A stretch of DNA of 64,000 nt from contig DASZRT010000032.1 of NCBI GenBank assembly GCA_035549075.1, positions 48,488 through 112,487 of the forward strand, in the 5' to 3' direction. Positions 22,113-57,363 of this stretch are shown piece by piece. The DNA is from Polyangia bacterium (GTDB lineage: Bacteria; Myxococcota_A; Polyangia; Fen-1088). The translations under genes and the position numbers were made by a program. The notes under the pieces were generated by a model. That model searched no databases, was not told the DNA's origin, and saw only the letters and a list, made by a program, of their open reading frames with translations. Numbering within the stretch: position 1 is the first letter of the stretch; each line of letters starts with the position of its first letter.

Positions 22113-22140
22113 TTGACTCGCCGCCCTCCTGGGCAAGAAT
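22113..22140 (+). promoter_or_regulatory. candidate sigma70-type promoter of the dcw cluster
   Basis: TTGACT (22113-22118), a 16-nt spacer, then AAGAAT (22135-22140). It ends about 8 nt before the rsmH ATG and is preceded by an AT-rich stretch. Confidence 0.3.
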
Positions 22141-22148
22141 GACCGGAC

Positions 22149-23102: not shown

Positions 23103-23103
23103 C

Positions 23104-27229: not shown

Positions 27230-28659
27230 ACGCGCCCGCGTCGCACGCGTTCGACTTCGCGGCGCGCGCCATGCGCGGGGTGATCATCCAGAAAGGAACG
27301 CGTGGCGACGCGTTCGCGGGCGGCGCGTCCGACTCGCGCGAGGTGAAGGCAGGCGCGATCTTCTTCGCGTTCCCGGGCGAGCGCGTCGACGGCTTCGCGT
27401 TCGCGGCGCAGGCGGCGGCGAACGGCGCGGCAGGCGTCGTCGTCGCGCGCGGGCGCGGCGTGCCCGCGGGCTGCGAAGCGCTCACGGTCATCGAGGTCGA
27501 CGACGCGCGCCTCGCGATGGGCGATCTCACGCGCGCGGTGCGCGCACAATTCGGCGGCAAGGTCGTCGGCGTCACGGGCTCGAACGGCAAGACGACGACG
27601 AAGGAGCTGGTCGCGGCCGCGCTCGCGCCCATGGGGGACGTGCTGCGCACGCCGGCTAGCCTCAACACCGACGTCGGCTTGCCGCTCACCGTGCTCGGCG
27701 CGACGGGGCGCGAGGCGGCGTGGGTGCTGGAGATGGCGATGCGCGGGCGCGGCGAGATCGCCTACCTCGCCGACATCGCGTCGCCGCACGTCGGCGTCAT
27801 CACCAACGTCGGCGGCGCGCACCTCGAGCGCCTCGGGACGATCGAAGAGGTCGCGCGCGCCAAGGGCGAGCTGTTCGCGGGCCTCGGGCCCGACGCGGTC
27901 GCGGTGCTGCCTGCGGGCGATCCGCTCGTCGAGCCGCAGGCGGCGCACATCCCGCGCGCGCGTCGCGTGACGTTCGACGGCGGCGTCGCGGGTTCGAAGC
28001 CCGACGTGCGCGTGCTCGAGCTTCTGCCCGCGGGCGCCGCGGGCTCCGTCGTGCGCTACGCCGTGGGTGATCTCCCGGTCGTTGCCCGGCTGCCGCTCGC
28101 GGGCCTTCACAACGCGAAGAACGGCGCCGCCGCGCTCGCCGTCGCGCGCGCTCTCGGCGTGTCCGCACCCGAGGCAGCTCTCGCGCTCGAAAAAGTCGCG
28201 CTGCCGCCGCACCGTTCAGCCGCCGTTCCGGCCGGCGGTCGCGTCGTGCTCGACGACTGCTACAACGCCAACCCCGATTCGATGAAGGCCGCGCTCGCCT
28301 CGGTCGTCGCGTCGGCGACGCCCGCGCGCGCCTTCGCGATCCTGGGCGACATGAAAGAAGTCGGTTCACATTTGGCCGAGTCCGAGGCGCTCCACCGCGA
28401 GGTCGGGCGCGCCGCGGGCCAACGCCTCGCCGGGCTCGTCGCGATGGGTGCGCTCGCTGATGCGCTGATCGCGGGCGCGCGTGACGCGGGCCTGCCCGCC
28501 GACAGAGCCGTCGCCGCCGCGACGCCCGAAGAGGCCGCGGCGCGCGCCGCCGCCTGGACGGCGCCTGGCGATTGGATCCTCGTCAAAGCTTCCCGTGGCA
28601 TGAAACTCGAGCGCGCCGTCGACGCGCTCGTCGCAACCCTCTCGTCGGGGGCCAGATAA
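27226..28659 (+). CDS. murF: UDP-N-acetylmuramoyl-tripeptide--D-alanyl-D-alanine ligase
   Basis: VTGSNGKTTTKEL P-loop. GTGA overlap with murE. Confidence 0.9.
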   Translation: MNAPASHAFDFAARAMRGVIIQKGTRGDAFAGGASDSREVKAGAIFFAFPGERVDGFAFAAQAAANGAAGVVVARGRGVPAGCEALTVIEVDDARLAMGDLTRAVRAQFGGKVVGVTGSNGKTTTKELVAAALAPMGDVLRTPASLNTDVGLPLTVLGATGREAAWVLEMAMRGRGEIAYLADIASPHVGVITNVGGAHLERLGTIEEVARAKGELFAGLGPDAVAVLPAGDPLVEPQAAHIPRARRVTFDGGVAGSKPDVRVLELLPAGAAGSVVRYAVGDLPVVARLPLAGLHNAKNGAAALAVARALGVSAPEAALALEKVALPPHRSAAVPAGGRVVLDDCYNANPDSMKAALASVVASATPARAFAILGDMKEVGSHLAESEALHREVGRAAGQRLAGLVAMGALADALIAGARDAGLPADRAVAAATPEEAAARAAAWTAPGDWILVKASRGMKLERAVDALVATLSSGAR

Positions 28660-28663
28660 CGAG

Positions 28664-29776
28664 ATGCTCTTTCACCTCTTCAACGCGCTCCGCGAGACCA
28701 TCCCGGGCGCCAACGTCTTTCGCTACGTCTCGACGCGCATCGCGCTCGCGACGCTGACGTCGTTGCTCATCACGTTCATCGTCGCGCCGTGGTTCATCCG
28801 CCGGGCGCGCGCGCGTCAGCTGGGCGAGGTCATCCGCGAGGACGGCCCCGCGGGCCACGCCAGCAAGCGAGGCACGCCGACGATGGGCGGCGCCCTCATC
28901 ATCTTGGCCCTCGTGGCGGCGACCGTGCTGTGGTGCGACCTGCGCAGCACGCTGGTTTGGCTCGCGCTGTTCGTCACCGTCGGCTACGGCGTCATCGGCT
29001 TCGTCGACGACTACATCAAGATCGTCAAGAAAAACAAAAAAGGCTTGCCGGGGCGCGTGAAGCTCTTGGGCCAGCTGATCATCGGCGGCGTCGCCGCGGC
29101 CTGGCTCTACGCGACCGACGCGCTGCCGCCCGAGGTTCGCCTCCACGTCGCGCTGCCGCTCGTGAACTTCCACCACGCGCACCTCACGCTGCCGCTCGTG
29201 GCGTTCGTCGCCTTCGGCGTCTTCGTGCTCATGGCGGAGTCGAACGCCGTCAACCTCACCGACGGCCTCGACGGCCTCGCGATCGGCCCCGTCATCATCT
29301 GCTCGTTCACGCTGCTGCTGCTCGCCTACGCGGCGGGCACGACGCTGCGCAACTTCAACATCGCCGACTACCTGGGCATGCCACACGTGCCGGGCACGGG
29401 CGAGCTGGCCGTGTTCTGCGGCGCCATGGGCGGCGCCGGCATCGGCTTTCTCTGGTTCAACACGCACCCGGCGCAGGTCTTCATGGGCGACGTCGGCGCC
29501 CTCGCGCTCGGCGGCGCCATCGGCTTCGTGGGCCTCGCCACCAAGACCGAGATGTCGCTGCCCATCATCGGCGGCGTCTTCGTGGCCGAGGCCGTCAGTG
29601 ACATCATCCAGGTGGCCTACTACAAGCGCACGAAGAAGCGCGTCTTCTTGATGGCGCCCATCCACCACCACTTCGAGAAGCTGGGCTGGCCCGAGTCGCG
29701 CATCGTGGTGCGTTTCTGGATCGTCTCGTTCGCCTGCGCGATCCTGGGCCTCGTCGTCACGCTCAAAGTCCGCTGA
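28664..29776 (+). CDS. mraY: phospho-N-acetylmuramoyl-pentapeptide-transferase
   Basis: Polytopic membrane protein with MraY-family motifs (NAVNLTDGLDGLA, PTMGG). Confidence 0.9.
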   Translation: MLFHLFNALRETIPGANVFRYVSTRIALATLTSLLITFIVAPWFIRRARARQLGEVIREDGPAGHASKRGTPTMGGALIILALVAATVLWCDLRSTLVWLALFVTVGYGVIGFVDDYIKIVKKNKKGLPGRVKLLGQLIIGGVAAAWLYATDALPPEVRLHVALPLVNFHHAHLTLPLVAFVAFGVFVLMAESNAVNLTDGLDGLAIGPVIICSFTLLLLAYAAGTTLRNFNIADYLGMPHVPGTGELAVFCGAMGGAGIGFLWFNTHPAQVFMGDVGALALGGAIGFVGLATKTEMSLPIIGGVFVAEAVSDIIQVAYYKRTKKRVFLMAPIHHHFEKLGWPESRIVVRFWIVSFACAILGLVVTLKVR

Positions 29777-29784
29777 AACCAGGG

Positions 29785-31158
29785 ATGCCGCCCGAGCTCA
29801 AAGGAAAGCGCGTTCTCGTCGTCGGTCTCGGGCGCTCCGGGACGGCGGTCGCGATCCTGTGCGCGGCCCACGGCGCCGTCGTCACCGTGACCGACAAGCG
29901 CGGCATCGACGTGCTCGGGCCCGCGCTCGCCGAGCTGCCGCGCAACGTCGCCGTCGAGATCGGCGGCCACGAGACCGAGACCTTCCTCGCGACCGACCTC
30001 ATCGTCTTGTCGCCGGGCGTGCCCGAGATCCCCGAGCTGAAGGCGGCGCGCGCCGCGGGCGTCGCCGTCACGGGTGAGATGGAGCTCGCCTCGCGCTTCA
30101 TCGAGGCACCCATCATCGCCATCACGGGCACGAACGGAAAGTCGACGACGACGACGCTCGCGGGCGCGATGACGATGGCCAGCGGGCGGCCCACGTTCGT
30201 GGGCGGCAACCTCGGCGACCCGCTCGCGCTCGCCGTGGGCACGCCCGCGGGCGACGCCGGCGGCGCGTGCGTCGTCGAGGTGTCGAGCTTCCAGCTCGAG
30301 ACGACGCAGACCTTCCACCCGCGCGTCGCCGTGCTGCTCAACATCACGGCTGATCACCTCGATCGCTACGTCGACCTCGACGACTACGCGCGCACGAAGG
30401 GGCGCATCTTCGCGGCGCAGGCGTCGTCGGACTTCGCCGTCGTCAACCTCGACGACCCGCTGGCCGTGAAGCAGACCGAGGGCATCCGCGCGCGTCGGCT
30501 CGGCTTCTCGCTCGAGCAGCGCCTGTCCGAAGGCGCGTGGCTCGACGGCGAGGAGCTCGTCGTGCGCCTGCCGGGCGCGCGCACCGAGGCGTACCCGACA
30601 ACGGTGCCCGCGCTCGTGGGCCGCCACAACCAGGCCAACGCGCTCGCGGCGCTGCTCGCGAGCCGCCTCGCGGGCGCGACCCACGCCGAGGCGCTGCGCG
30701 CCCTCAACGAGTTCCAGCCGCTCGCGCACCGCATGGAGCTCGTCGCCAACGTCGGCGGCGTCATGTTCTACGACGACTCGAAGGGCACGAACGTCGGCGC
30801 CGTCGTCGCGGCGCTCGACGGCTTCCCGCGGCCCGTCGTGCTCATCGCCGGCGGGCGCGACAAGGGGGGAGACTACGCGCCGCTCGCCGAGGCGATGCGC
30901 CGCGTGGGCCGCGCCGCCGTGCTCATCGGCGAGGCCGCGGACAAGATCGAGGCGGCGTTCCGCGGCGTCGTGCCCGTCTCGCGCGCGGCGACGATGGAGG
31001 CCGCCGTCGGCGAGGCGACGCGGCTCGCCGAGCCGGGCGACGCCGTCGTGCTGTCGCCGGCCTGCTCGAGCTTCGACATGTTCCGCGACTACGCGCACCG
31101 CGCGCAGGTGTTCCGCGCCGCCGTCGAGGCCGTCGTGCAGAAAGAGCAGGGCGCGTGA
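29785..31158 (+). CDS. murD: UDP-N-acetylmuramoylalanine--D-glutamate ligase
   Basis: N-terminal Rossmann VVGLGRSG and Mur ligase P-loop ITGTNGKSTTTTL. Confidence 0.9.
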   Translation: MPPELKGKRVLVVGLGRSGTAVAILCAAHGAVVTVTDKRGIDVLGPALAELPRNVAVEIGGHETETFLATDLIVLSPGVPEIPELKAARAAGVAVTGEMELASRFIEAPIIAITGTNGKSTTTTLAGAMTMASGRPTFVGGNLGDPLALAVGTPAGDAGGACVVEVSSFQLETTQTFHPRVAVLLNITADHLDRYVDLDDYARTKGRIFAAQASSDFAVVNLDDPLAVKQTEGIRARRLGFSLEQRLSEGAWLDGEELVVRLPGARTEAYPTTVPALVGRHNQANALAALLASRLAGATHAEALRALNEFQPLAHRMELVANVGGVMFYDDSKGTNVGAVVAALDGFPRPVVLIAGGRDKGGDYAPLAEAMRRVGRAAVLIGEAADKIEAAFRGVVPVSRAATMEAAVGEATRLAEPGDAVVLSPACSSFDMFRDYAHRAQVFRAAVEAVVQKEQGA

Positions 31159-32594
31159 GGACGACCCGGGTCGCTCCGACGACGCGCTCGACGCGCGCGA
31201 GCCGCCGCGAGGCCCTCGCGTCGACGGCCATCACGCCCGCGTCGCGCCGCCTGCCGACGCCCGAGCGCGAGCCGCGCCGCTGGCCCGCGCTCGAGAAGCT
31301 GCGCGCGCGCTGGGCCGCGCTCATGACCAAGCTCGCGCGCGCCTTCGACGGCTCGCCGCACATCCGGCCCAGCGAGGTCGGCGTCGATCGCGTCCTCGTC
31401 GGCACCGTGCTCGCGCTGTGCGCGTTCGGCATCGTCATGGTCTATTCGTCGGGCGCCGTGTTCGCGGCCAAGAAGTACGGCGACTCGGCCTACTTCCTCA
31501 AGCGCGAGGTCATCTACGCGACGCTCGGCCTGGTCGCGATGTCGTTCGCGGCGCGCTTCGACTACGCCCACTACCGGCGCATCGCCTACCCGCTGCTGTT
31601 CGCGAGCATCCTCTTCCTCGCCGTCGTCTTGAAGATCGGCTCACGCGCGGGCGGCGCCATCCGCTGGTTCCGCTTGGGCCCGCTGTCGTTCCAGCCCAGC
31701 GAGCTCGCGAAGTTCGCGCTCGCCGTCTACCTCGCGTCGCTGCTGGCGCGTCAGGCCGAGAAGGTGAAGGTCTTCTCGATCGGCTTCGCGCCGCCGCTGC
31801 TCGTCACGGGCGTGATGATGGGCCTGCTGCTCAAGCAGCCGGACCTCGGCACGGCCGTGATCTTCGGCGTCGTCGCGCTCGGCCTGCTGTGCGTCGCCGG
31901 CACGCGCACGAGCTACCTCATCCTCGCCGTGCTCGTGGCCGCGCCCGCGGGCTGGAAGTTCATCGTGTCGACGCCGTTCCGCATGCGCCGCATGCTGGCC
32001 TTCCTAGATCCGTGGGCCTTCCGCCGCGACGTCGGCTACCAGATCACCGAGTCGCTCATCAGCGTCGGCTCGGGCGGCACGACGGGTCTCGGCCTCGGCG
32101 ACGGCCGGCAGAAGCTCTTCTTCCTGCCCGAAGCGCACACCGACTTCATCCTCTCGATCGTGGGCGAAGAGCTGGGCCTCATCGGCATCGTGTGCGTCGT
32201 GCTCGGCTTCTCGATCCTCGTGTGGCGCGGGCTGCGCGCGGCGTTCCGGGCGCGCGACGTGTTCGGCTGCTACCTCGCCTTCGGCATCACGGCGATGTTC
32301 GGCCTGCAGGCGCTCGTCAACATCGGCGTCGTGCTCGGCTCGCTGCCGACGAAGGGCCTGCCGCTGCCGTTCATCAGCTACGGCGGCACGTCGCTCGTCG
32401 TGAGCCTCTTCATGGCGGGCGTGCTCGCCAACATCTCGGCGCGCAACCCCGAGCCGGGCGAGGGCCTCGAGGGCCTGCTCGCCGAGGTGCGCGCGCGCGC
32501 CCGCAAGGCGCGCAACCGCCGCGCCGAGGGCGGCCCAAAGATCATCGTCGAGCTCGACGACGGCCCGCGCGGTCCCGAGCCCACCGCCTCGTGA
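31155..32594 (+). CDS. ftsW: SEDS-family peptidoglycan glycosyltransferase
   Basis: Ten-TM SEDS topology. Start assigned to the GTG overlapping the murD stop (GTGA); the alternative internal ATG is at about 31322. Confidence 0.85.
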   Translation: MRTTRVAPTTRSTRASRREALASTAITPASRRLPTPEREPRRWPALEKLRARWAALMTKLARAFDGSPHIRPSEVGVDRVLVGTVLALCAFGIVMVYSSGAVFAAKKYGDSAYFLKREVIYATLGLVAMSFAARFDYAHYRRIAYPLLFASILFLAVVLKIGSRAGGAIRWFRLGPLSFQPSELAKFALAVYLASLLARQAEKVKVFSIGFAPPLLVTGVMMGLLLKQPDLGTAVIFGVVALGLLCVAGTRTSYLILAVLVAAPAGWKFIVSTPFRMRRMLAFLDPWAFRRDVGYQITESLISVGSGGTTGLGLGDGRQKLFFLPEAHTDFILSIVGEELGLIGIVCVVLGFSILVWRGLRAAFRARDVFGCYLAFGITAMFGLQALVNIGVVLGSLPTKGLPLPFISYGGTSLVVSLFMAGVLANISARNPEPGEGLEGLLAEVRARARKARNRRAEGGPKIIVELDDGPRGPEPTAS

Positions 32595-33703
32595 TGACCG
32601 CCGCCGCGCCTCGCCCCCTTCGTGTCCTCATCGCCGGCGGCGGCACGGGCGGGCATTTGTATCCGGGCATCGCGCTCGCCGAGGCGCTCACATCGTCGGG
32701 CGGAGGCGAAGTCTTGTTCGTCGGCACGGCGAAAGGTCTCGAGACGAAGCTCGTTCCCGAGGCGGGCTTTCCGCTCGAGCTCATGGACGTCACGGGCCTC
32801 AAGCGCACGGGGCTGATGGCGCTCGTGCGTGGCCTCGCGCGGTTGCCCGGCGCGTTCTTCCAGGCGCGCGCGATCCTGCGGCGGTTCCGGCCCGATCTCG
32901 TCGTCGGCGTCGGCGGCTACGCGTCGGGCCCCCTCGTCTTCGCGGCCGCGCTGTCGGGCTACCCGACGGCGATCCAAGAGCAGAACAGCAAGCCTGGCTT
33001 CACGAACCGCGTGCTCGGTCGCGTCGTGCGCCGCGTGTTCGTCGCCTTCGAAGAGGCGAAGCGCTCGTTCTCAGCGCGCAAGACGCGCCTCTTCGGCAAC
33101 CCGGTGCGCCGGCGCTTCCTCGAAAAGGTCGCGCGCGCGGGCGCGACGCCGCCCGCCCCCACGAAGTCGATCCTCGTGCTCGGCGGCAGCCAGGGCTCGC
33201 ACGCCGTCAACGAGCTGCTCTCGACGACGATCCAGGTGCTCAAGGCGCGCGACGTGTTGCCGCCCGTCGTGCACCAGACGGGGCCGGCCGAAGAGGTCCG
33301 CATGAACCTCTACTACGAGGCGCTCGGCCTGTCCGACAAGGTCACCGTGCGCGCGTTCATCGACGACATGCCGGCGGCGCTCGCCGACGCCGCGCTCGTC
33401 GTGGCGCGCGCGGGCGCGCTCACGCTCGCCGAGCTGGCCATCATGGGGCGCCCCGCGATCCTCGTGCCGCTGCCGACGGCCACCGACGATCACCAGACGC
33501 GCAACGCGCTCGAGTTCGCGCACGCGGGCGCGGCCGTCGTCGTGCCGCAATACGAAACGGCCGCCACGCAGCTCGCCGACATCATCGTCGCTCTGTTCAA
33601 CGAGCCGGGCCGCCTCGAAAACATGGGCGAGGCCATGCGCTCGCTCGCGAAGCCGGCGGCGACCGAAGAGATCGTCGCCGAGCTGCGCTCGCTCGTGAAG
33701 TAG
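32594..33703 (+). CDS. murG: UDP-N-acetylglucosamine--N-acetylmuramyl-(pentapeptide) pyrophosphoryl-undecaprenol N-acetylglucosamine transferase
   Basis: LIAGGGTGGHLYPGIALAE N-terminal motif. GT28 C-terminal domain. Confidence 0.9.
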   Translation: MTAAAPRPLRVLIAGGGTGGHLYPGIALAEALTSSGGGEVLFVGTAKGLETKLVPEAGFPLELMDVTGLKRTGLMALVRGLARLPGAFFQARAILRRFRPDLVVGVGGYASGPLVFAAALSGYPTAIQEQNSKPGFTNRVLGRVVRRVFVAFEEAKRSFSARKTRLFGNPVRRRFLEKVARAGATPPAPTKSILVLGGSQGSHAVNELLSTTIQVLKARDVLPPVVHQTGPAEEVRMNLYYEALGLSDKVTVRAFIDDMPAALADAALVVARAGALTLAELAIMGRPAILVPLPTATDDHQTRNALEFAHAGAAVVVPQYETAATQLADIIVALFNEPGRLENMGEAMRSLAKPAATEEIVAELRSLVK

Positions 33704-33709
33704 CGCGGT

Positions 33710-36217
33710 TCAGTACATGCGGAAGCGGTAGCCGAGCGAGAAGCGCAGGCCCCAGTTGCCGTCGACGAGGGCGTGCGGGTTGTCGTGCTGCGACGACGCG
33801 ACCTGTGTGCAGCGGTTGTTGTTGGCGCAGTCGTCGAAGGGATAGAAACTCGCGACGAGGTCGAAGGTGAGGCGCTGGAAGAACGCCGCTCCGAAGATCA
33901 GCTCGGGGCCTTCGCGTTGCAGCAAGAGGCCGTCGAACGTGCTGAGCCTATCGATGGCCCAACCGCCGCCGAAGTGCAGCTGCACCAGAGACTGAAACGT
34001 ATTGCCCGCGCAGCGCTGCAGCTGCAGCTCGTCGGTGAGGTGCACCGCGCCTCCGTACGTGAAGGCGAGCGAGCGCCCTTCGCCGACCGGGTCGTAGTCC
34101 TGGGTCGCGTGCACGCCCGTGATGCGCAGCTCGACATCGGCCATGAGGTGCAGCTCGCGCGGCATGCGGTCCCACGGCACGCGATGCGCGGCGCTGAACG
34201 AGAGGCCACGATCACTCACGAACGCCAGGTCGAGCGTCATCGTCGGTGGCTGGTAGACGTAGGCGAAGTTGAGCGCCGCCTTGGCGAGATCGCCGACGAC
34301 GAGGCGGCCAGGGACGTCGAGCAACGGCTGCGCCGTCGTCGTGCGGTGCACGATGACCTGGAGGTCGTCGCGGATGGCGAGATCGACGGTGCCGGCGGTC
34401 GCGGGCAAGTGGTGGTACTTGAGGTCGCGGTACACGTAGGGCGCGGGCGCGTCGTTGGTGGTCGGGCCGGGCGCCTCGCCCAGCGCGCGCAGGAAAGTTT
34501 CCTGCTCGCCGGTGATCGTCGACGACAGCGACGGCGCTTGCTTCTCGCGCCAGGCGAGCGTCGCTTCGCTCGCGTAGGCGAGCGCCTCGACGTTGCGGCG
34601 GAAGGCGTCGCCGTCGGGTAGTCCCGTCCCCACGGCGGCGCACGCGGCCGGCGCGCCCGTGCCCGGCGCGCCGAAGCGCCGCGCGCGGTAGGCCATGAGG
34701 CAGTCGAGCTCGGGCGCGTTCTCGAAGGCGGGACCTGCGCCCGTCGCGCGCATCACCTGGAACGCGAGCGACGTCTGCGCGAGGTTTTGCCAGGCGTCGA
34801 CCATGCCCGCGTAGAAGTCGTAGACGCGAAAGTCGCCCTCGGCGAAGGCGAGGAACTCCATGAGGTACGCGCCGGCGACGGGCTCTTGCCGTGGCGGGCT
34901 CTCGAGCTCTTGCAGCAAGCCCGGCTCGCGTTCGAGCACGTCGAGCAGCGCGACCTCGAACGAAGTGCTCATGAAGTCACCCGCGAAGGTGCTCCACGTG
35001 TCGAGGAACGTTCCGCGCGACGGTTCCTCGGCGCGCTCGTTGTCCTTCGGGTCGATCGGGCGCGACACGGTGACGTCCGGATCCTGCACGATGTAGCGGG
35101 TGGGTGTCTTTGGATCGCGACCTTCGGCCAACAAGCGCCAGCGTCGCATTTCGACGGCGAGGCCCACGGGCCGATCGTCGAAGACGCCGCCATCCGTGTA
35201 CCAGCCGTCGTCGTGCGGGGCCCGCGGGTCGTCGGTGAGCAGGTGCAACCAACGCGGCGGGAACGCAAACGAGAACGCCGACGAGGCTGCGAGCGTCTTC
35301 GTGACCGAATCGACGTCGTACGATTCGAGTCGGCGCAGCTCGAGCTCGAGCAGATCGTGGCTCGGATCGTTGGGCGGCGGCTCGAGGGGCCGCAGCGTCG
35401 GCGCGGCCTCGCCGCTCGCCTTCGTGAGCGAGAACGTCAGCTTCTCCGTCTGCACGGGCAACACGAGGCCCACGCCGTCGAGCGGTTGGATCTGCCGGGC
35501 GTGCACGCGCGTCGTCGTGAGGCCCATATCGATCCGGCACGCGTCGCTCCACTTCGTCTTCTTCCACTCTCGGCTGAGGTAGTCGGCCGAGGCGTCGATG
35601 GGCTTCGTCGAGAGCAGCCCATCGCGTTTGACGCCGTCGGCGTCGATGAGCTCCTTCTCGCCCACGGGGACCCAGACGTTCCAGAACAAGCTCTCGCGCG
35701 GGCGTGGGTTGGGCGCCTGGCAGGCCGTCATCGCCGAGACGAAGGCGTTGATCGAGCCCGACGAGGCGCCCGTGACGAGCGCGAGCGGCGCCGTGCCCTC
35801 GGCGGGTTTCCAGTCGCGCTTGGTCGCGGCGGCGCGCGCGCCGGCGCGCGGCTCGAGCGCGCGCAGCTCGCTGAAGGCCGCCAGCAGGTAATAGAGGTAG
35901 CCGCCCTGGTAGTTGCCGAGGCTCACGGCGCCCGAGATGCTGAGCGCGAGCGGGCGCGACAGCTCCTCGTCGAGCAGCGCGATCTCGTCGGGGCTCGCGG
36001 CGGCGTCGTCGCCGCCGAGCCACGCCGCGAGGTGATGCACCGTCCGACCGTCCCAAGGCGGCGCATCTTTGCCGCGGATGACGGTGCCCCGCGCGGCGTG
36101 GTGATCGGCGATGGCGGCCAGCGCGGCCCGGTCGTCGGGCGCGTGAGGCGCCGCGCGCGCCGTGCCGGAGAGTCCGACCATCAGCCCGAAGAGTGCGACG
36201 CGGCCTCGTCTCGACAC
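33710..36217 (-). CDS. patatin-like phospholipase with C-terminal outer-membrane beta-barrel-like domain (PlpD/type Vd-like candidate)
   Basis: Signal peptide, a Gly-rich oxyanion region (LALSISGAVSLGNYQGG), a GxSxG nucleophile (VTGASSGSINAF) and the DGG aspartate (WYTDGGVFDD). The C-terminus ends ...LRFSLGYRFRMY, an aromatic-terminated OMP-like strand. Confidence 0.55.
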   Translation of the reverse strand: MSRRGRVALFGLMVGLSGTARAAPHAPDDRAALAAIADHHAARGTVIRGKDAPPWDGRTVHHLAAWLGGDDAAASPDEIALLDEELSRPLALSISGAVSLGNYQGGYLYYLLAAFSELRALEPRAGARAAATKRDWKPAEGTAPLALVTGASSGSINAFVSAMTACQAPNPRPRESLFWNVWVPVGEKELIDADGVKRDGLLSTKPIDASADYLSREWKKTKWSDACRIDMGLTTTRVHARQIQPLDGVGLVLPVQTEKLTFSLTKASGEAAPTLRPLEPPPNDPSHDLLELELRRLESYDVDSVTKTLAASSAFSFAFPPRWLHLLTDDPRAPHDDGWYTDGGVFDDRPVGLAVEMRRWRLLAEGRDPKTPTRYIVQDPDVTVSRPIDPKDNERAEEPSRGTFLDTWSTFAGDFMSTSFEVALLDVLEREPGLLQELESPPRQEPVAGAYLMEFLAFAEGDFRVYDFYAGMVDAWQNLAQTSLAFQVMRATGAGPAFENAPELDCLMAYRARRFGAPGTGAPAACAAVGTGLPDGDAFRRNVEALAYASEATLAWREKQAPSLSSTITGEQETFLRALGEAPGPTTNDAPAPYVYRDLKYHHLPATAGTVDLAIRDDLQVIVHRTTTAQPLLDVPGRLVVGDLAKAALNFAYVYQPPTMTLDLAFVSDRGLSFSAAHRVPWDRMPRELHLMADVELRITGVHATQDYDPVGEGRSLAFTYGGAVHLTDELQLQRCAGNTFQSLVQLHFGGGWAIDRLSTFDGLLLQREGPELIFGAAFFQRLTFDLVASFYPFDDCANNNRCTQVASSQHDNPHALVDGNWGLRFSLGYRFRMY

Positions 36218-36274
36218 GCGCCGACCGTAGCGCGGGCCGCGCGCGCCTCAAAGAAAGGACCTTCGGCGGGATGC

Positions 36275-36907
36275 TTACGGCGCCCGCCCGGCGGCCCGCG
36301 CGCCGACGAGCGCGAGATCGCGCGCGAGCAGCTCGCGCAGCTCGCGCCGGCGCTCGGGCGTGGGCGCGCGCAGCGCCGCCGACGGGTGAATCGTCACGAC
36401 GACGTCGGGCGCGGGCGCGCCGAGCTCACGCGCGAGCGGAAACACCTGGCCGCGATCGCGCAGGACGCGCACGCTCGGGCCCAGCAGCGAGCCGGCCGCC
36501 GTCGCGCCGAGCGCGGCGACGACGCGCGGCCGCACGAGCCGGAGCTCGTCGTCGAGCCACTGACGGCAGGCCGCCGCCTCGCGCGCGCTCGGCTTCTCGT
36601 GCAGGCGGCGCTTGCCGCGCTCGACGAACTTGAAGTGCTTCACGGCGTTGGTGACGTAAACGCTCGCGCGCGGCAGGCCCGCCAGGGCGAGCGCCTCGTC
36701 GAGCAGCGCGCCCGCCGGCCCCACGAACGGGTGGCCGCGGCGATCCTCTTCGTCGCCGGGTTGCTCACCCACGAGCATGACGGCCGCTCGGGGCGGGCCC
36801 TCGCCGAACACGGCCTGCGTCGCCGCCGCGTACAGCGGGCAAGCGCGGCACGTGGCGCAGGCCGCGGCCGCTTGTGCGAGCGATGCGGAGGGCGCGCCCG
36901 CCGGCAT
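36275..36907 (-). CDS. family 4 uracil-DNA glycosylase (4Fe-4S type)
   Basis: CxxC...C, GEGP, VMLVGEQPGxxED, PFVGPAGxLLD, VYVTNAVKH, and HPSA. Start placed at internal Met MPAGAP. The longer ORF has an Arg-rich N-terminal artefact. Confidence 0.8.
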   Translation of the reverse strand: MPAGAPSASLAQAAAACATCRACPLYAAATQAVFGEGPPRAAVMLVGEQPGDEEDRRGHPFVGPAGALLDEALALAGLPRASVYVTNAVKHFKFVERGKRRLHEKPSAREAAACRQWLDDELRLVRPRVVAALGATAAGSLLGPSVRVLRDRGQVFPLARELGAPAPDVVVTIHPSAALRAPTPERRRELRELLARDLALVGARAAGRAP

Positions 36908-36915
36908 CACGGCCT

Positions 36916-38256
36916 CTAGGGCGGCGCGGCCTCGATGCGCCAGATGCAGTTGCCGACGTCGTCGCTCACGAGCAGGCCGCCGTCGCCGTCGACGGCGATG
37001 CCCACGGGGCGGCCCCACGCCTCGCCGTCGGCGTTCGCGAAGCCCGTCATGAAGTCCTCGTAGCCGCCGAGCGCCCGGCCTTTGTCATCGACGGGAATGC
37101 GCACGACCTCGTAGCCGGCCAGGGCGCTGCGGTTCCACGAGCCGTGCTGGGCCGCGAAGATGTTGCCGTTGTACGCGGCCGGGAATTGCTCGCCGTCGTA
37201 GAAGACGAGCTGCATCGAGGCCGCGTGCGGCTCGACCAGCACGTCGGGCACGATGACCTTCGACGCGAGCTCGGCGTGCTTGCCGCCGAGGCGCGGGTCG
37301 GCGTGGCCGCCGATGTAGAAGTACGGCCAGCCGTAGAAGCCGCCGTCGACGACGCGCGTGACGTAGTCGGGCACGAGCTCGTCGCCCAGCTCGTCGCGCT
37401 CGTTGACCGACGCCCACAGCGCGCCGTCGCGCGGCGAGATCGCGAGGCCGACGGCGTTGCGGATGCCCGACGCGTAGACGCGGCGATCTTTGCCGTCATT
37501 GTTGCCATCGATGGTCATCTCGAGGATGTCGGCGCGCTCTTTCTCGCCGGGGTGGTCGTCGGGATCGTCCACATTCGAAAATGACCCGACGGACACGTAG
37601 AGCTTCTTGCCGTCGGGCGAGATCGCGAGGTCGCGCGTCCAGTGGCCGCCGCCGCGGAGCAGGCCGCCGCCCGGCAGGTCGGCGATCTTCGTGGGCGCGC
37701 CGCGCGCCTTGAGATCGCCGTAGTAGTAGGGGAAGCGGAGCACGGCGTCGGTGTCGCCGACGTAGAGCGCCTGCGGCCGCTTGCCCGGCGGCCAGAACGC
37801 GAGGCCGAACGGCTTCTCGAGATCGGAGGCGAACGTCTCGATCTGCGCGGCGCGGCCGTCCTTGCCGACGCCGCGCAAGACGCGCACGCGGCCCGACCAG
37901 CTCTCGCTCACGAAGACGTCGGCGTTGGGGGCGACGCGCAGCGCGCGCGGGCGCTCGAGGCCCTCGGCGTAGAGCGAGACGCGGAAGCCGCGCGGCACCT
38001 GCGGCCACGCTTTTTCGGGGCGCGGCACGACGTGCGGCGAGCGATCCGCCGAGCGCGTCGCAAACGGCTTCGGCAGCGGATCGGCCGCGATCTTGTGCGC
38101 CGCGCCGGGCGTTTGCGCCGACGCGTCGTTCGCGCGCTGCCGCGCCGAGCTCTTGAGCTTCGCGGCGGCGAGGCCCCCGGCGAGCGCGAGCACGCCGACG
38201 GCGACGGTGACGACGCGCGAGGAGATCCGCCCGGCCATGATCTTGAAGCTACTCAC
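36916..38256 (-). CDS. PQQ-dependent sugar dehydrogenase (soluble aldose/sorbosone dehydrogenase family)
   Basis: N-terminal TM/signal, then a beta-propeller with motifs typical of the sorbosone dehydrogenase / YliI family. GTG start. Confidence 0.75.
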   Translation of the reverse strand: MSSFKIMAGRISSRVVTVAVGVLALAGGLAAAKLKSSARQRANDASAQTPGAAHKIAADPLPKPFATRSADRSPHVVPRPEKAWPQVPRGFRVSLYAEGLERPRALRVAPNADVFVSESWSGRVRVLRGVGKDGRAAQIETFASDLEKPFGLAFWPPGKRPQALYVGDTDAVLRFPYYYGDLKARGAPTKIADLPGGGLLRGGGHWTRDLAISPDGKKLYVSVGSFSNVDDPDDHPGEKERADILEMTIDGNNDGKDRRVYASGIRNAVGLAISPRDGALWASVNERDELGDELVPDYVTRVVDGGFYGWPYFYIGGHADPRLGGKHAELASKVIVPDVLVEPHAASMQLVFYDGEQFPAAYNGNIFAAQHGSWNRSALAGYEVVRIPVDDKGRALGGYEDFMTGFANADGEAWGRPVGIAVDGDGGLLVSDDVGNCIWRIEAAPP

Positions 38257-38316
38257 GCGGCGCGCGATCGCAAGCTATCCGTTGACGCGCGCCCGCGCGC
38301 CGTCGAAAGTGCGCGC

Positions 38317-39681
38317 ATGTTTCGCAAGCGCGACGTCGCCATCCACTTCGTCGGCATCGGCGGCATCGGCATGTCGGGCATCGCCGAGGTGTTGCTCGAC
38401 CTCGGGTATCCGGTGTCGGGCTCCGACGTGAAGGAGAGCGACGTCACGCGGCGGCTCACGTCGCTGGGCGCGCGCGTCACCGTCGGCCACCGCGCCGAGA
38501 ACGTCGCCGCCGCCGACGTCGTCGTCGTGTCGAGCGCCGTCAAGGCCGACAACCCCGAGGTCGCGGCGGCGCGCGCGCGCGACGTGCCCGTGATCCCGCG
38601 CGCCGAGATGCTGGGCGAGCTCATGCGCGTCAAGGACGGCGTCGCCGTCGCGGGCAGCCACGGCAAGACGACGACGACGACGATGATCGCGACCATCCTC
38701 GCGCGCGCCGGGCTCGATCCCACCGTCGTCATCGGCGGCAAGGCGCGCGCCTTCGGCTCGAACGCGCGCCTCGGCGGCGGCGAGCTGCTCGTCGCCGAGG
38801 CTGACGAGAGCGACGGCTCGTTTCGCCACCTGTTGCCGATGGTCGCGGTGGTCACCAACATCGATCGCGAGCACATGGACCACTTCGGGACGGAGGCGGC
38901 GCTCGAGGCGGCCTTCCTCGACTTCGCCGATCGCGTACCGTTTTACGGGCTCGTCGTCGTGGGCGCCGACAGCCCGCTCGCCGCGCGGCTGCCGCCGAAG
39001 CTCACGAAGCGCCACGTCACCTACGGCCTGCGCGCCGGCGACTACCGCGGCGAGATCGTCGACGCGCGCCCCGACGGCACGCGCTTCCGCATCCGCGTGC
39101 GCGGCGCCGAGCGCGGCGAGGCGCGCATTCGCATGCCCGGCGTGCACTACGCCGAAAACGCGCTCGCGGCGTTGTGCGTGGCGGACTTCCTCGGCGTTTC
39201 GTTCGCCGACACGTGCGGCGCGCTCGAGGCGTTCGAGGGCGTCGACCGGCGCTTCAGCGTGCGCGGCGAGGCGGGCGGCGTGCTCGTCGTCGACGACTAC
39301 GGCCACCACCCCACGGAGCTCGCGGCGACGATCGCGGCGGCGCGGCTGCACGGCCGGCGGTTGGTCGTCGCGTTTCAGCCGCACCGCTACTCGCGCACGA
39401 AGGACCTGATGGACGCGTTCGCGCCCGCGCTCGCCGGCGCCGACGAACTCGTGCTCACCGACATCTACGCCGCGGGCGAGGCGCCGCTCGCCGGGGTGAA
39501 CATCGAGGCGATGTTGGCGACGTTCCCGCGGGTCGGCGGGCGGAAGGTGTCGTACGCCCCGCGCGGCGAGCTGGTCGCGGCGTTGGTCGCCGCGGCGCGA
39601 CCGGGGGACCTGATCCTTTGTTTGGGCGCGGGCGACATCACGAATGCCGCGGCGGACGTGCTGGGGCGGCTGGGCAGATAG
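38317..39681 (+). CDS. murC: UDP-N-acetylmuramate--L-alanine ligase
   Basis: FVGIGGIGMSGIAE N-terminus. P-loop VAGSHGKTTTTTMIA. Confidence 0.9.
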   Translation: MFRKRDVAIHFVGIGGIGMSGIAEVLLDLGYPVSGSDVKESDVTRRLTSLGARVTVGHRAENVAAADVVVVSSAVKADNPEVAAARARDVPVIPRAEMLGELMRVKDGVAVAGSHGKTTTTTMIATILARAGLDPTVVIGGKARAFGSNARLGGGELLVAEADESDGSFRHLLPMVAVVTNIDREHMDHFGTEAALEAAFLDFADRVPFYGLVVVGADSPLAARLPPKLTKRHVTYGLRAGDYRGEIVDARPDGTRFRIRVRGAERGEARIRMPGVHYAENALAALCVADFLGVSFADTCGALEAFEGVDRRFSVRGEAGGVLVVDDYGHHPTELAATIAAARLHGRRLVVAFQPHRYSRTKDLMDAFAPALAGADELVLTDIYAAGEAPLAGVNIEAMLATFPRVGGRKVSYAPRGELVAALVAAARPGDLILCLGAGDITNAAADVLGRLGR

Positions 39682-39733
39682 TCCGTCTGTCGTTTTCTGG
39701 ACAGACGCCCGCGCTCGTCGTTCGATCGTGGGA

Positions 39734-40666
39734 ATGGGCGAGCCGCTGCCTCAACGCACGCGTGTGACCGCGGTCGAGGTGCCGCGGCGCGGGTTGTTGC
39801 GCCGGCGGTCGAACCGGCGCGTGCTCGTCGTGAAGCGCTCGCCGCTCGTGTGGTTCGGCGAGGTGGCCAAGGCGGTCGCGTCGCGGCTCGCCGTGCTCGG
39901 CAAGCTCGTCGTCGTGTGCGCGTTGGTCGCGGGCGCGGTCTACGGCGGGCGCGCGCTCGTGCGCCACGTCGTCGCGTCGCCGCGCTTCGACCTGCGCGAG
40001 ATCCGCGCCGACGCGACCCTGCACATCTCGCACGACGACGTCGTCGAGCTGTCGGGCCTCTCGCCGGGCGACCACCTGCTGGCGATCGACACCGACGCCG
40101 TCGCGGCGCGCGTCGCGGCGCACCCGTGGGTCGCGAGCGTGCGCGTGCGGCGCCAGCTGCCGTCGGCGCTCGCGATCGACGTCGTCGAGCGGCGCGCGGC
40201 GGCGACGGCGCTGCTCGGCACGCTGTACCTGCTCGACGAGACGGGCCGCCCGTTCAAGCGCGCGACGCTCGAGGAGGCCGACGGCCTACCCATCGTCACG
40301 GGCCTCTCGCGCGAGCAGTACACGCTGGCGCGCAACGCGAGCGAGGCCGCCTTCCGCGAGGGCCTGAGCCTCCTCGCCGCGTACCGCGCCGTCGATTCTC
40401 TGTCCGCCGCGCACGGTCCGTCGAGCCGCCCCGCGCTCTCGGAGATTCACATCGATCCGCGCGCGGGCTTCTCGCTCGTGTTCTACGACGGCGGCGGCGA
40501 AGTCTTGCTCGGCCGCGGCGATTGGGCCGGCAAGCTCGCGCGCCTCGACGAGATCCTGGGCGCGCTCGGCCCGCGCGGCGCGAGCGCGCTGCGGGCCGTG
40601 CACCTCGACGGCCCCACGCACGATCGAGTGACGGTGCGCCTCGCGGCGACGCCCTCACCCGGTTAG
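39734..40666 (+). CDS. ftsQ: cell division protein FtsQ/DivIB
   Basis: Single TM followed by a POTRA domain (FDLREIRADATLHISHDDVVELSGLSPGDHLLAIDTDAVAARVAAHPWVASVRV). Sits immediately after murC. Confidence 0.75.
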   Translation: MGEPLPQRTRVTAVEVPRRGLLRRRSNRRVLVVKRSPLVWFGEVAKAVASRLAVLGKLVVVCALVAGAVYGGRALVRHVVASPRFDLREIRADATLHISHDDVVELSGLSPGDHLLAIDTDAVAARVAAHPWVASVRVRRQLPSALAIDVVERRAAATALLGTLYLLDETGRPFKRATLEEADGLPIVTGLSREQYTLARNASEAAFREGLSLLAAYRAVDSLSAAHGPSSRPALSEIHIDPRAGFSLVFYDGGGEVLLGRGDWAGKLARLDEILGALGPRGASALRAVHLDGPTHDRVTVRLAATPSPG

Positions 40667-42435
40667 TGGTTGCCGCGGAAGACGCGCGCGCCGCTGCCGC
40701 CCACGAGGAAGTCGAGGTCGGCGCCGCGGTCGGCCTGCTGCACGTGATCGAGGTAGAGCTTGAGGTACCCGCGTGGCTCGTGTGGTGCGGGCGGCGTCCA
40801 GCGCGCGCGGCGGCGCGCGAGCTCGTCGTCGGCGACGTCGAGGTGCAACCTGCGCGCTTCGACGTCGAGCTCGATGACGTCGCCCGTCTCGACGAGCGCG
40901 AGCGGCCCGCCCGCCGCTGACTCCGGCGCCACCTGCACGACGACCGTCCCCGCGGCCGTGCCGCTCATGCGCGCGTCGGAGAGGCGCACCATGTCCGTCA
41001 CGCCGCGCGCGAGCAGCTTCTTCGGCAGCGAGAGCAGCCCCACCTCCGGAAAGCCCGGGTAGCCGCGCGGCCCGCAGTTCTTGAGCACCAGCACCGATTC
41101 GGGCCCGACCTCGAGCGCGGGATCGTCGATGCGCCGATCGTAGTCGTCGATGTCGGCGAACACGACGGCGGGCCCGCGGTGCTTCATGAGCGCGGGCGTC
41201 GCCGCCGACGGCTTGATGAGCGCGCCACCCGGCGCGAGGTTGCCCATGAGCACGGCGATCCCGCCGCGCGGCTTGAAGGGCGCGTCGGCCGTGAAGATGA
41301 CGTCGCGGTTCCAGCAGGGCGCGTCGGCGATCTCCTCGCCGAGCGTCCGCCCCGTGACCGTGAGCGCGCCGCCGTGCAGGCGCGGCGCGAGCTCGCGCAG
41401 CAGCGCCGCGAGGCCGCCCGCGTAGAAGAAGTCCTCCATGAGGTGCTTCCCCGAAGGCACGAGGTTCGCGAGGCACGGCACGTCGCGGCCCAGCCGATCC
41501 CAGTCGTCGAGCGACAGCGGCACGCCGAGGCGCCCCGCGATCGCCAGCAGGTGCACGACGGCGTTGGTCGAGCCGCCGAGGCCCGCGTTGGTGACGATCG
41601 CGTTCTCGAACGCCGCGCGCGTCAGGATGTGCGAGAGGCGCACGTCGTCCTTGACGAGCCCGACGATGCGGCGGCCCGCGAGGTGCGCCAGCGTGCTCCG
41701 CCGCGCGTCGGGCGCCGGGATCGCCGCGTTGCCCGGCAGCGCGACGCCCATCGCCTCGCACAGCGCCGCCATGGTCGACGCCGTGCCCATTGTCATGCAC
41801 GAGCCCGCCGAGCGCGCCATGCACGCCTCGGCGTCGCGCGCGTCCGCAAGGGTGATCTCGCCCGTCTTCAGCTGATCGCCCAGCTTCCACAGCATCGTGC
41901 CCGAGCCGACGTCGCGGCCGCGCCACTTGCCGTTGAGCATGGGCCCGCCCGACACGAAGATCGCCGGCAGATCGCAGCTGGCCGCGCCCATGAGCAGCGC
42001 GGGCGTCGTCTTGTCGCAGCCGCCCAGCAAGATGACGCCGTCGATCGGGTTCGCGCGGATCGACTCCTCGACGTCCATGCTCGCGAGGTTGCGGAACAGC
42101 ATCGTCGACGGGCGCATGAGGCTCTCGCCCAGGCTCATCACGGGGAACTCGAGCGGGAAGCCGCCCGCCTCCCACACGCCGCGCTTCACGCGCTCGGCGA
42201 GCGCGCGCAGGTGGCCGTTGCACGGCGTGAGCTCCGACCACGTGTTGCAGATGCCGATGACGGGCCGGCCGTCGAACACGTCGTCGGGCACGCCCTGGTT
42301 CTTCAGCCAGCTGCGGTGAAGGATGCCCTCGCGCCCCGGGGCGTCGAACCACGCCGCGCTCCGCAGCCGGCGCCTGCCGCCCTTTGAGTCGTCCGCCACG
42401 GCGGCAGTGTATCGAAGCCGCCGCGCGGTTGGCAT
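40663..42435 (-). CDS. IlvD/EDD-family dehydratase (sugar-acid dehydratase-like)
   Basis: GGCDKTTPALLMGAASCDLPAIFVSGGPM and SAGSCMTMGTASTM Fe-S cluster motifs. Start taken at the first ATG, MPTARRL; a GTG alternative lies at 42399. Confidence 0.75.
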   Translation of the reverse strand: MPTARRLRYTAAVADDSKGGRRRLRSAAWFDAPGREGILHRSWLKNQGVPDDVFDGRPVIGICNTWSELTPCNGHLRALAERVKRGVWEAGGFPLEFPVMSLGESLMRPSTMLFRNLASMDVEESIRANPIDGVILLGGCDKTTPALLMGAASCDLPAIFVSGGPMLNGKWRGRDVGSGTMLWKLGDQLKTGEITLADARDAEACMARSAGSCMTMGTASTMAALCEAMGVALPGNAAIPAPDARRSTLAHLAGRRIVGLVKDDVRLSHILTRAAFENAIVTNAGLGGSTNAVVHLLAIAGRLGVPLSLDDWDRLGRDVPCLANLVPSGKHLMEDFFYAGGLAALLRELAPRLHGGALTVTGRTLGEEIADAPCWNRDVIFTADAPFKPRGGIAVLMGNLAPGGALIKPSAATPALMKHRGPAVVFADIDDYDRRIDDPALEVGPESVLVLKNCGPRGYPGFPEVGLLSLPKKLLARGVTDMVRLSDARMSGTAAGTVVVQVAPESAAGGPLALVETGDVIELDVEARRLHLDVADDELARRRARWTPPAPHEPRGYLKLYLDHVQQADRGADLDFLVGGSGARVFRGNH

Positions 42436-45443: not shown

Positions 45444-46490
45444 ATGGCGATCCGGGCGAACAGTGGGCAAAGGCGGTCGAGCGTCTTGGTGACGATCGTG
45501 GTTTTTCTGGCGAGCGCTTCGGCGTGCGTCGTCCCTCGCGACACGCCGCTCGATTCGTCGGCCGACGCACCAACCGAGGTCGCGCTCGAAGGGCCGCAAG
45601 CATTCGACGCCCCTGATTCGAGCGCCGCCGACGCACCAGCGACGGATCGCGAGACAACCGACGCTCCATCGACATCGACCGGCGATGCGGCGATCGACAT
45701 TTCCGACGTGCCTGTCGACGCCACCGTCGACACGGCCATGGACGCACCAGCTTGCCAAGGCGGCTATCGGACGTGCCCGGGCTCGACCGCCTGCATTCGA
45801 ACCGCCCCCGCCGCGTGCTGTGCCGACAAAGAGTGCCCCTCCGCGAAGCCTTCCTGCGTCGACAACGTCTGCAAGGCGCGCGCGCTCAACGACTCATGCT
45901 CGGCCGACACCGAGTGCGGCAGCGGCCACTGCGCCCCGACCGCATCCGGCGCGACGACGAAGGTCTGCTGCAGCACCGCCTGCGACGGCCCCTGCAACGC
46001 CAGCTGCGCCGGCGGCACCTGCGAGCACAAACCGTTCAGGACGTCCTGCGGCGAGATCGACAACAACGATTATGCTCCGCGGTTCTACCTGTGTGACGGC
46101 AATGGAAATTGCAATCCACCGGTATTCCCATGTGGAACGGGAAGTTCGTGCGCCGCGAAGAGCGACGTCGCTTGCTGCGGCGACCCCAACAACAATCTTC
46201 GACCCGCCTGCTTGCCGCCGGCGACCTGTGCGCAGGGAGCGGGCAACTTTGCCCAGAATTGCCGAGCGACGATAGATTGTCCGGTGGGCAACTTCTGTTG
46301 CGTCATCCAAAACCTGGACGTGCAGCTCACTGCGTGTTCAGCAAATTGCCAGACTTACGCACCCGCAGAGTGGGATTCAACGGCCTACGCCCACGGCCAG
46401 TCCTGTGACTATTTGAGGGATTCGAGTTGTCCCGCAGGGCAGCACTGCGGCGTCGCGAACGACTACACGGGGATCAGCTTGTGTGAGTAG
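45444..46490 (+). CDS. cysteine-rich secreted lipoprotein
   Basis: Signal/lipobox (VFLASASAC). More than 40 Cys in repeated C-x-x-x-C / CC patterns. Confidence 0.6.
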   Translation: MAIRANSGQRRSSVLVTIVVFLASASACVVPRDTPLDSSADAPTEVALEGPQAFDAPDSSAADAPATDRETTDAPSTSTGDAAIDISDVPVDATVDTAMDAPACQGGYRTCPGSTACIRTAPAACCADKECPSAKPSCVDNVCKARALNDSCSADTECGSGHCAPTASGATTKVCCSTACDGPCNASCAGGTCEHKPFRTSCGEIDNNDYAPRFYLCDGNGNCNPPVFPCGTGSSCAAKSDVACCGDPNNNLRPACLPPATCAQGAGNFAQNCRATIDCPVGNFCCVIQNLDVQLTACSANCQTYAPAEWDSTAYAHGQSCDYLRDSSCPAGQHCGVANDYTGISLCE

Positions 46491-47703: not shown

Positions 47704-47769
47704 GGTGCTCCCGGATGCGGGTGAGGGCACAAACGGCTCAGGCGCCTAGCGGCGCGACGTCCGATCATT

Positions 47770-49029: not shown

Positions 49030-49083
49030 GCGATCGTCGATAGCACGATCCGAACTTTCGTCCTAGCGAGCCCGAGACGTACA

Positions 49084-57359: not shown

Positions 57360-57363
57360 GGCT

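Follow-up and report, generated by a model that had tools for sequence, protein, structure and literature searches.

How does a cluster of division and cell wall (dcw) genes come to be cut by genes that read the other way? Few gene orders in bacteria are as conserved as that of this cluster, and coordinated expression of division and wall-synthesis genes has been linked to its remaining intact. The question is raised by a stretch of 64,000 nucleotides from a Polyangia bacterium (GenBank assembly GCA_035549075.1, contig DASZRT010000032.1, positions 48,488 to 112,487), hereafter the window, in which three opposite-strand genes stand between murG and murC and the cluster ends after ftsQ. We find that this order is shared by none of the sampled relatives, the insert being absent from all of about 90 related loci, although the murG|murC junction itself is broken repeatedly among them. 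The arrangement probably arose by rearrangements within the genome, tolerated because murC-ftsQ is transcribed alone, and is probably neither a mobile island nor an assembly error.

The divided cluster and its counterparts in related genomes

Genes of the window (~72% G+C) were called from third-position GC periodicity (GC3 frame plot), followed by Pfam and NCBIfam scans. Nine collinear plus-strand genes, from rsmH to murG, have junctions that overlap or measure <10 bp. The separation of murG and murC is 4613 bp, holding three minus-strand genes, and the span 33704-38316 runs exactly from the murG stop to the murC ATG. The stop codons of murG (TAG) and of the first inserted gene, which encodes a patatin-like protein (TGA), are convergent with 6 bp between them. 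In the detached 3' fragment, murC and ftsQ are both full length, and the ftsQ stop codon overlaps that of a convergent dehydratase gene as TTAG. The order given by the original prediction, rsmH-murG and then murC-ftsQ, is borne out by the frame plot and the Pfam and NCBIfam scans. The convergent dehydratase that it placed after ftsQ is likewise present and belongs to the IlvD/Edd family, and the three opposite-strand gene families that it named between murG and murC are right in the broad sense, as judged from profile scans. It had also reported murB, ddl, ftsA, and ftsZ as missing from the window, and tblastn with Escherichia coli proteins agrees: mraZ, murB, ftsA, and ftsZ have zero matches in the whole 64 kb. 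A weak ddl-like match at 59888-60208 was rejected, as the gene concerned (59264-60517) encodes an L-amino-acid-ligase type ATP-grasp protein of a sugar-modification cluster.

Set beside the canonical E. coli cluster, mraZ-rsmH-ftsL-ftsI-murE-murF-mraY-murD-ftsW-murG-murC-ddlB-ftsQ-ftsA-ftsZ, the window has rsmH-murG in identical order and tightly packed, and murC still precedes ftsQ, with the strand unchanged. Unlike E. coli, it is without mraZ, ddl, and murB, carries the 4.6-kb three-gene opposite-strand stretch between murG and murC, and does not have ftsA and ftsZ after ftsQ. In Bacillus, murC lies outside the dcw cluster.

For comparison with relatives, a MurC scan with one genome per species provided 80 loci with 10-kb flanks, onto which we mapped the proteins of the window together with MurB, Ddl, FtsA, and FtsZ of E. 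coli. Further relatives were reached through FtsA and FtsZ matches and combined with the closest MurC loci. The latter, with MurC 71-81% identical to that of the window and labeled Polyangia or Myxococcales, form one clade with the added relatives in the MurC tree. Members of this clade commonly read murG-murC-ftsQ-ftsA-ftsZ-smpB and have no murB or ddl there. The absence of four genes had been offered as unusual, and this holds for part of them: murB and ddl are typically lacking between murC and ftsQ in the clade, which places their absence outside this event, whereas losing ftsA-ftsZ from the position after ftsQ is not clade-typical. Homologs of the patatin, uracil-DNA glycosylase (UDG), GSDH, and ilvD genes lie near murC in 0/80 loci at an E value of 1e-3, and the insert with its right flank gave zero tblastx matches to 14 clade loci. 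The original prediction had allowed that relatives sharing the order would make it lineage-typical; with the order unlike that of all 80 murC loci and all 14 close-clade loci, it is not.

The murG|murC junction takes several forms in the clade. In three relatives (L004, L005, and L009), murG and murC are contiguous with a 9- to 265-bp gap, and ftsA-ftsZ follow ftsQ, both unlike the window. These loci resemble it in having murC directly before ftsQ with no murB or ddl and in their MurC, which is 77-81% identical with the same N terminus, MF(R/K)KR(D/N)V. The window's sister in the MurC tree, L010, has 7 kb of poorly coding sequence inserted, in which ECF-sigma, kinase, and TPR domains occur only in fragments; across this interval between murG and murC (3151-10128), coding periodicity is weak, and the insert could consist of decayed genes or reflect frameshifts from long-read assembly. 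Four genes separate murG and murC in L090, encoding a hypothetical protein, a radical SAM protein (minus strand), a 3-keto-disaccharide hydrolase, and an OmpA-family protein. An OmpA-family gene is also found upstream of murC, with murG not upstream, in L007, L008, and L091. L092 has an opposite-strand gene upstream of murC, again with murG not upstream, and murG is absent within 10 kb in L006. Among the closest Polyangia relatives, at least five states of the junction can therefore be counted. L010, L090, L092, and L006-L008 are, like the window, broken at this point, and L090 shares with the window an opposite-strand gene inside the cluster; unlike the window, these loci have entirely different content and, except for L007, retain ftsQ-ftsA-ftsZ. 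Thus, of the murG|murC interruption put forward as unusual, the content is unique, but the break itself recurs.

In one subclade of the relatives, the OmpA-family (peptidoglycan-binding) gene immediately precedes murC and shares its strand; the loci are L007 (9109-9888), L008 (4001-4813), L090 (6767-7609), and L091 (1507-2457). The dcw cluster may have recruited this gene in that lineage specifically. Its N-terminal part in L007 and L008 has only weak, coiled-coil-type Pfam matches.

Spacing also sets this junction apart in Myxococcota-like loci. With counts that are indicative only, the survey being centered on murC and so subject to ascertainment bias, a murG/murC gap of >500 bp occurs in 8/30 Myxococcota-like loci versus 0/33 outside the phylum. 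The corresponding figures are 2/26 versus 0/33 for ftsW/murG and 0/19 versus 0/12 for murD/ftsW. Between murG and murC, the spacer has a median of 187 bp in Myxococcota-like loci versus 30 bp outside, where the gap is ≤290 bp in all 33 loci.

Splitting of the dcw cluster into subclusters and delocalization of its genes have been described across phyla in a survey of 85 representative genomes (Leonard et al. 2022, PMC8871954), the text of which makes no mention of Myxococcota, Deltaproteobacteria, or a recurrent murG|murC break. The window fits the split subclusters of that survey. It adds a new instance to the dcw splitting already known, and its content recurs in none of the relatives sampled; murG|murC breaks often in this lineage, and the window is a further rearrangement of that sort, with no new system or mechanism. 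Well supported by independent assemblies, it exemplifies a dcw cluster that unrelated opposite-strand genes have cut and that has lost ftsA-ftsZ. The varied junction states of the clade show relaxed constraint on the cluster in these large-genome myxobacteria, point to murG|murC as its weak link, and provide comparative material for operon architecture and division-gene regulation in Myxococcota. Coordinates are collected in Table 1.

Table 1. Features of the divided dcw cluster and its flanks (window coordinates)
Feature	Position	Strand	Evidence
rsmH	22149-23102	+	frame plot, Pfam
ftsL-like	23104-23598	+	weak: 27 bits, under cut-off
ftsI	23595-25676	+	frame plot, Pfam
murE	25673-27229	+	frame plot, Pfam
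murF	27226-28659	+	frame plot, Pfam
mraY	28664-29776	+	frame plot, Pfam
murD	29785-31158	+	frame plot, Pfam
ftsW	31155-32594	+	frame plot, Pfam
murG	32594-33703	+	frame plot, Pfam
5' block rsmH-murG	22149-33703	+	also tblastn with E. coli proteins; public-record gene calls
Left junction murG/patatin	33704-33709		sequence; same in Logan contig L085 and CAZPSI contig
Patatin-like phospholipase, 835 aa	33710-36217	-	PF01734, translation, AlphaFold model, Foldseek
UdgX-type uracil-DNA glycosylase (UDG), 210 aa	36275-36907	-	TIGR03914, TIGR00758, motifs
GSDH/TrAA12-like beta-propeller dehydrogenase, 440 aa	36916-38238	-	PF07995; TrAA12 in precomputed hits
Divergent GSDH/murC intergenic region, 78 bp	38239-38316		sequence
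murC	38317-39681 (ATG 38317)	+	TIGR01082 equivalog, 509.8 bits
ftsQ	39734-40666	+	Pfam POTRA_1 and FtsQ_DivIB_C
IlvD/Edd-family dehydratase	40663-42435	-	Pfam, NF004784

A proposed history of the rearrangement

The inserted genes match their surroundings in composition (GC 0.70-0.78, GC3 0.91-0.95), and their distances in relative synonymous codon usage (RSCU) fall within the range of the neighbors; the native codon bias attributed to them earlier is thereby upheld. Equally in accord with the original prediction, neither transposase nor integrase is present in any scanned gene: integrases, transposases, and recombinases are absent from Pfam scans of most GC3-supported window genes and from the public-record Pfam list for 28-50 kb. 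The window contains no tRNA, tmRNA, or other Rfam RNA, and the search for att-like or inverted-repeat boundaries gave only GC-rich chance matches of 62-95% identity, none of them flanking the insert. The step from codon bias to an old rearrangement does not follow, however, as genes moved within a genome have native usage from the first day. The event is dated only as later than the split from relatives with MurC ≤81% identical.

The dehydratase beyond ftsQ contains both ILVD_EDD domains (PF00920, 370 bits; PF24877, 205 bits) and scores 897 bits against NF004784 (cut-off, 539); its score for the L-arabinonate dehydratase equivalog, 841, is just under the cut-off of 882. By sequence it is an IlvD/Edd-family enzyme of the sugar-acid dehydratase type. 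When the GSDH-like protein was used as a query against metagenome contigs, 80 loci (L097-L176) were recovered at 55-61% identity on lower-GC contigs (GC 0.55-0.64). An IlvD/Edd gene, 52-55% identical to that of the window (45% in one case), lies 0.1-5 kb from the GSDH homolog in 16 of these 80 loci, versus none of the 80 murC loci taken as controls (Fisher p = 1.3e-5). The two genes are directly adjacent in L147 (751-3675). In L120 (6500-11227), they stand among genes for a 2-hydroxyacid dehydrogenase, an MFS transporter, and an isocitrate-dehydrogenase-family protein; the L120 GSDH homolog has an N-terminal cytochrome c domain. These features suggest a module for periplasmic sugar oxidation and sugar-acid dehydration. 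In the window, the GSDH-like and dehydratase genes are both on the minus strand, parted by murC-ftsQ alone. As the two are often neighbors elsewhere, murC-ftsQ appears to sit inside a former sugar-oxidation neighborhood.

These data can be accommodated in two steps. The ancestral cluster of the clade would have read murG-murC-ftsQ-ftsA-ftsZ, like L004, L005, and L009, with murG|murC already a transcriptional boundary at which murC had its own promoter, and the GSDH-like and IlvD/Edd genes would once have formed one sugar-oxidation neighborhood. A large rearrangement would first have broken ftsQ|ftsA and fused the cluster to that neighborhood. A local interchange of two blocks, murC-ftsQ and patatin-UdgX-GSDH, would have followed, through transposition or through tandem duplication and loss, and murC-ftsQ would now be an independent operon read from the 78-bp divergent region. 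Block interchange is the simplest route because the orientation of every gene is preserved, as observed. We infer this history as the most economical one.

As now arranged, the cluster must comprise at least three units, namely rsmH-murG, GSDH-patatin on the other strand, and murC-ftsQ, and the last requires a promoter of its own within or close to the 78-bp spacer. A candidate element consists of TTGACG (38282-38287), a 17-nucleotide spacer, and GAAAGT (38305-38310), ending 6 nucleotides before the murC ATG. If it is genuine, transcription would start approximately at the ATG and yield a leaderless murC mRNA. The weak promoter proposed earlier at this place is missed by a consensus scan, and its sole support is a similar element in one relative: L005 has TTGACC-N16-CAAAGT upstream of murC, at -71, overlapping the murG stop codon. 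The pattern TTGAC-N16-20-AAAGT has only 7 occurrences in 3.16 Mb of loci. Multiple alignment of the murC upstream regions was uninformative, and a pairwise local match to L005 was all that emerged. Together with the long Myxococcota spacers, the L005 element weakly suggests, post hoc, a transcriptional boundary at murG|murC that predates the insertion; with such a boundary already in place, the junction would tolerate insertions. Terminator-like matches between 33000 and 41500 are not above shuffled expectation. Since the 6-bp gap and the overlapping stop codons leave no room for intrinsic terminators, antisense read-through is possible.

Several points weigh against this account. The consensus scan of 33000-41500 found no sigma-70 site, and the likeness to L005 is a single post hoc match in low-complexity GC-rich sequence, with different spacing and distance from the ATG. 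The ftsQ|ftsA breakpoint is known from one side only, the genome's own ftsA and ftsZ not having been found. Elsewhere the dehydratase gene is usually downstream of the GSDH gene, whereas here it is upstream on the same strand, and the ancestral adjacency is something that we infer. Among Polyangia relatives, none was found with a close ortholog of either the GSDH-like or the dehydratase gene; with the best GSDH match at 61% and on lower-GC contigs, an older horizontal origin of those genes is possible. The intergenic spaces are too short for relics of a duplication, and the block interchange has left no direct trace. Finally, the murC-centered design of the junction survey biases ascertainment. 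With these points taken into account, intragenomic rearrangement remains the explanation that we consider probable.

A more far-reaching version would combine a lineage-wide, promoter-enabled hotspot at murG|murC, hit repeatedly and independently while the dcw cluster of one Polyangia clade is dismantled bit by bit, with the block interchange that embedded murC-ftsQ in a sugar-oxidation neighborhood. We regard this combination as tentative and rather doubtful as a whole; if true, the clade would be a natural test of why most bacteria conserve dcw order.

The intervening genes: an island, recruits, or passengers

The three genes of the minus-strand trio share one orientation, with spacers of 57 bp (UDG/patatin) and 8 bp (GSDH/UDG), and look like a single transcription unit. 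The patatin gene most likely starts at GTG 36217, which gives a predicted signal peptide. Its patatin domain scores 38.6 bits against PF01734 (gathering threshold, 27.7), and the dyad motifs GASSG (Ser) and DGG (Asp) are present and invariant in a 30-sequence alignment. In the confident AlphaFold model (pLDDT 82, pTM 0.83), the patatin domain is followed by a middle domain of helices and then by eight long strands at the C terminus; the protein ends in GYRFRMY. By Foldseek, the N-terminal part resembles CapV, and the C-terminal part resembles the 8-stranded barrels NspA, PagL, Ail, OmpA, and OmpX; a sequence search of PDB gave zero matches. The protein is thus predicted by the model to carry an OmpA/OmpX-like 8-stranded outer-membrane barrel at its C terminus. 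Type Vd autotransporters such as PlpD have a POTRA domain and, on the C-terminal side of the patatin domain, an Omp85-type barrel of 16 strands. A PlpD-like identity was ruled out, as the barrel is 8-stranded and no POTRA is present; Pfam found neither POTRA nor Bac_surface_Ag in the protein.

The patatin family is small, with 35 homologs at E <1e-20 among 5.8 billion proteins, the best being 60% identical, and it is also present in other Polyangia metagenome-assembled genomes (MAGs). Three genomic contexts of homologs with 45-60% identity were examined, and all are unrelated to that of the window; therefore, the trio is not a conserved traveling unit. One homolog, P0004, adjoins a type VI secretion gene cluster.

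The original prediction's "family-4 uracil-DNA glycosylase" is correct for the broad family and can be refined to the UdgX type. Enzymes of this type become covalently linked to DNA once they have excised uracil. The protein scores 255.8 bits against NCBIfam TIGR03914 (cut-off, 189.95) and 144.8 against TIGR00758 (125.3). The motifs that define UdgX are GEQPG (motif A), an R-loop KRRIH with its histidine, and HPS(S/A)(L/V)(L/V)R (motif B) (PMC10359453); the UDG has GEQPG at residues 47-51, KRRLH at 99-103, and, with a single deviation from motif B, HPSAALR at 174-180. On its sequence it is therefore UdgX-type and family-4-like. The "PQQ sugar dehydrogenase" named earlier is better called only a GSDH/TrAA12-like propeller, its dependence on pyrroloquinoline quinone (PQQ) being putative: the PQQ equivalog model is far under cut-off. 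The protein scores 61.8 bits against Pfam PF07995 (threshold, 25), covering only profile positions 111-276 of 332, and 26 bits against NCBIfam TIGR03606 (cut-off, 434). It has an N-terminal signal or anchor sequence.

Could the trio be a horizontally acquired island that entered a dcw cluster, until then intact, at the murG|murC junction? The block is absent from this place in every relative, its genes are co-oriented and tightly spaced in a unit-like manner, its closest patatin homolog is 60% identical, and its closest GSDH homologs are only 61% identical, on contigs (GC 0.55-0.64) unlike Polyangia. Yet GC, GC3, and RSCU are the same as in neighboring genes, no integrase, transposase, tRNA, or flanking repeat accompanies it, and the patatin family is found in other Polyangia MAGs. 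Moreover, simple insertion leaves unexplained the IlvD/Edd gene, a frequent GSDH neighbor elsewhere, that lies beyond murC-ftsQ. We consider an island unlikely.

Much less probable still is that the order is ancient and conserved in the lineage, the three genes having been recruited to the division and wall program, for example in envelope lipid remodeling. The predictions of an outer-membrane anchor for the patatin-like protein and of export for the GSDH-like one would make both envelope proteins, and recruitment at this site does happen, as an OmpA-family gene has settled directly 5' of murC in several sister-subclade genomes. Synteny contradicts the idea, no relative having any of the three genes near the cluster, and the patatin homologs occur in unrelated contexts. 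UdgX is of a DNA-repair type with no envelope link, and genes on the opposite strand cannot be cotranscribed with the cluster. The patatin, UdgX, and GSDH genes are probably passengers as regards division.

Authenticity of the junctions and other breaks around the cluster

The junctions recur in other assemblies. Contig CAZPSI010000157.1 (GCA_964589105.1) matches 23710-49681 of the window at 99.98%, with 5 single-nucleotide polymorphisms (SNPs) in 26 kb; it is offset relative to the window, collinear over all three junctions, and encodes the exact MurC and patatin proteins. Because of the 5 SNP differences, it is not a copy of the window. A 3.1-kb Logan contig (run SRR12170511) is 100% identical to 33471-36578 and covers the murG/patatin and patatin/UDG junctions. 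The patatin protein is also deposited under accession HVZ71780.1, from a third-party annotation (TPA) Polyangia MAG. As the same junctions are present in two further assemblies of the same population, misassembly is unlikely. An assembly or binning artifact, a chimeric contig fusing unrelated regions at gene boundaries, is accordingly scarcely credible: the source is a short-read metagenome assembly and the junctions fall exactly between genes, but a second MAG contig 5 SNPs apart is collinear through all three junctions, the independent Logan contig covers two of them (murG/patatin and patatin/UDG), every junction gene is full length, and composition is uniform.

Four substitutions that distinguish the CAZPSI contig from the window lie clustered within 20 bp (36579-36598) of the UDG gene. 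All four are nonsynonymous (EKPSARE versus QTPRARA) and lie directly after the UdgX KRRLH loop. The Logan contig stops exactly at 36578, as at an assembly bubble. The cluster could represent strain-level variation or gene conversion beside the catalytic loop.

Breaks at other points of the cluster were also seen in relatives. L088 begins at ftsQ with murC absent (a murC|ftsQ break), L094 and L096 begin at ftsA with a non-FtsQ gene upstream (an ftsQ|ftsA break), and L007 has murC alone; L006, L007, and L032 also have breaks in the 3' half. L094 and L096, which are independently deposited MAG contigs, both have ftsA and ftsZ separated by a minus-strand gene of 331 aa and start at the identical base, which suggests a repeat or coverage break just upstream. 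In both, ftsA is detached from ftsQ, like in the window. A search for the genome's own ftsA and ftsZ with the L010 FtsA and FtsZ queries gave seven candidates, all in other MAGs (GCA_964431675.1, GCA_031423255.1, GCA_973681155.1, GCA_900681975.1, GCA_035549155.1, and GCA_964618005.1).

On the 5' side of rsmH (21038-22148), a divergent Fic-domain gene occupies the place of mraZ, followed by a 337-bp spacer. The composition of this gene is odd (GC 0.61, second-position GC 0.32, GC3 0.93), and the 5' edge of the cluster may also be rearranged. About 3 kb 5' of rsmH, a PEGA/TPR gene (17179-19092) has a homolog in L092 (14994-15826) that is 50-65% identical in segments. Placed ~9 kb downstream of ftsZ and in the opposite orientation, the L092 homolog is either a paralog or a trace of an inversion around the cluster; as a marker of inversion, the gene was set aside, such proteins having many paralogs in Myxococcota.

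At the other end of the window, the region ~46000-63000 has lower GC (0.59-0.69) and carries sugar-modification and polysaccharide genes, among them those for a GDP-mannose 4,6-dehydratase, an ABC-2 transporter, a DegT aminotransferase, CmcI-type and C-methyltransferases, and the L-amino-acid-ligase type ATP-grasp protein. The region resembles a surface-polysaccharide cluster, possibly an acquired one.

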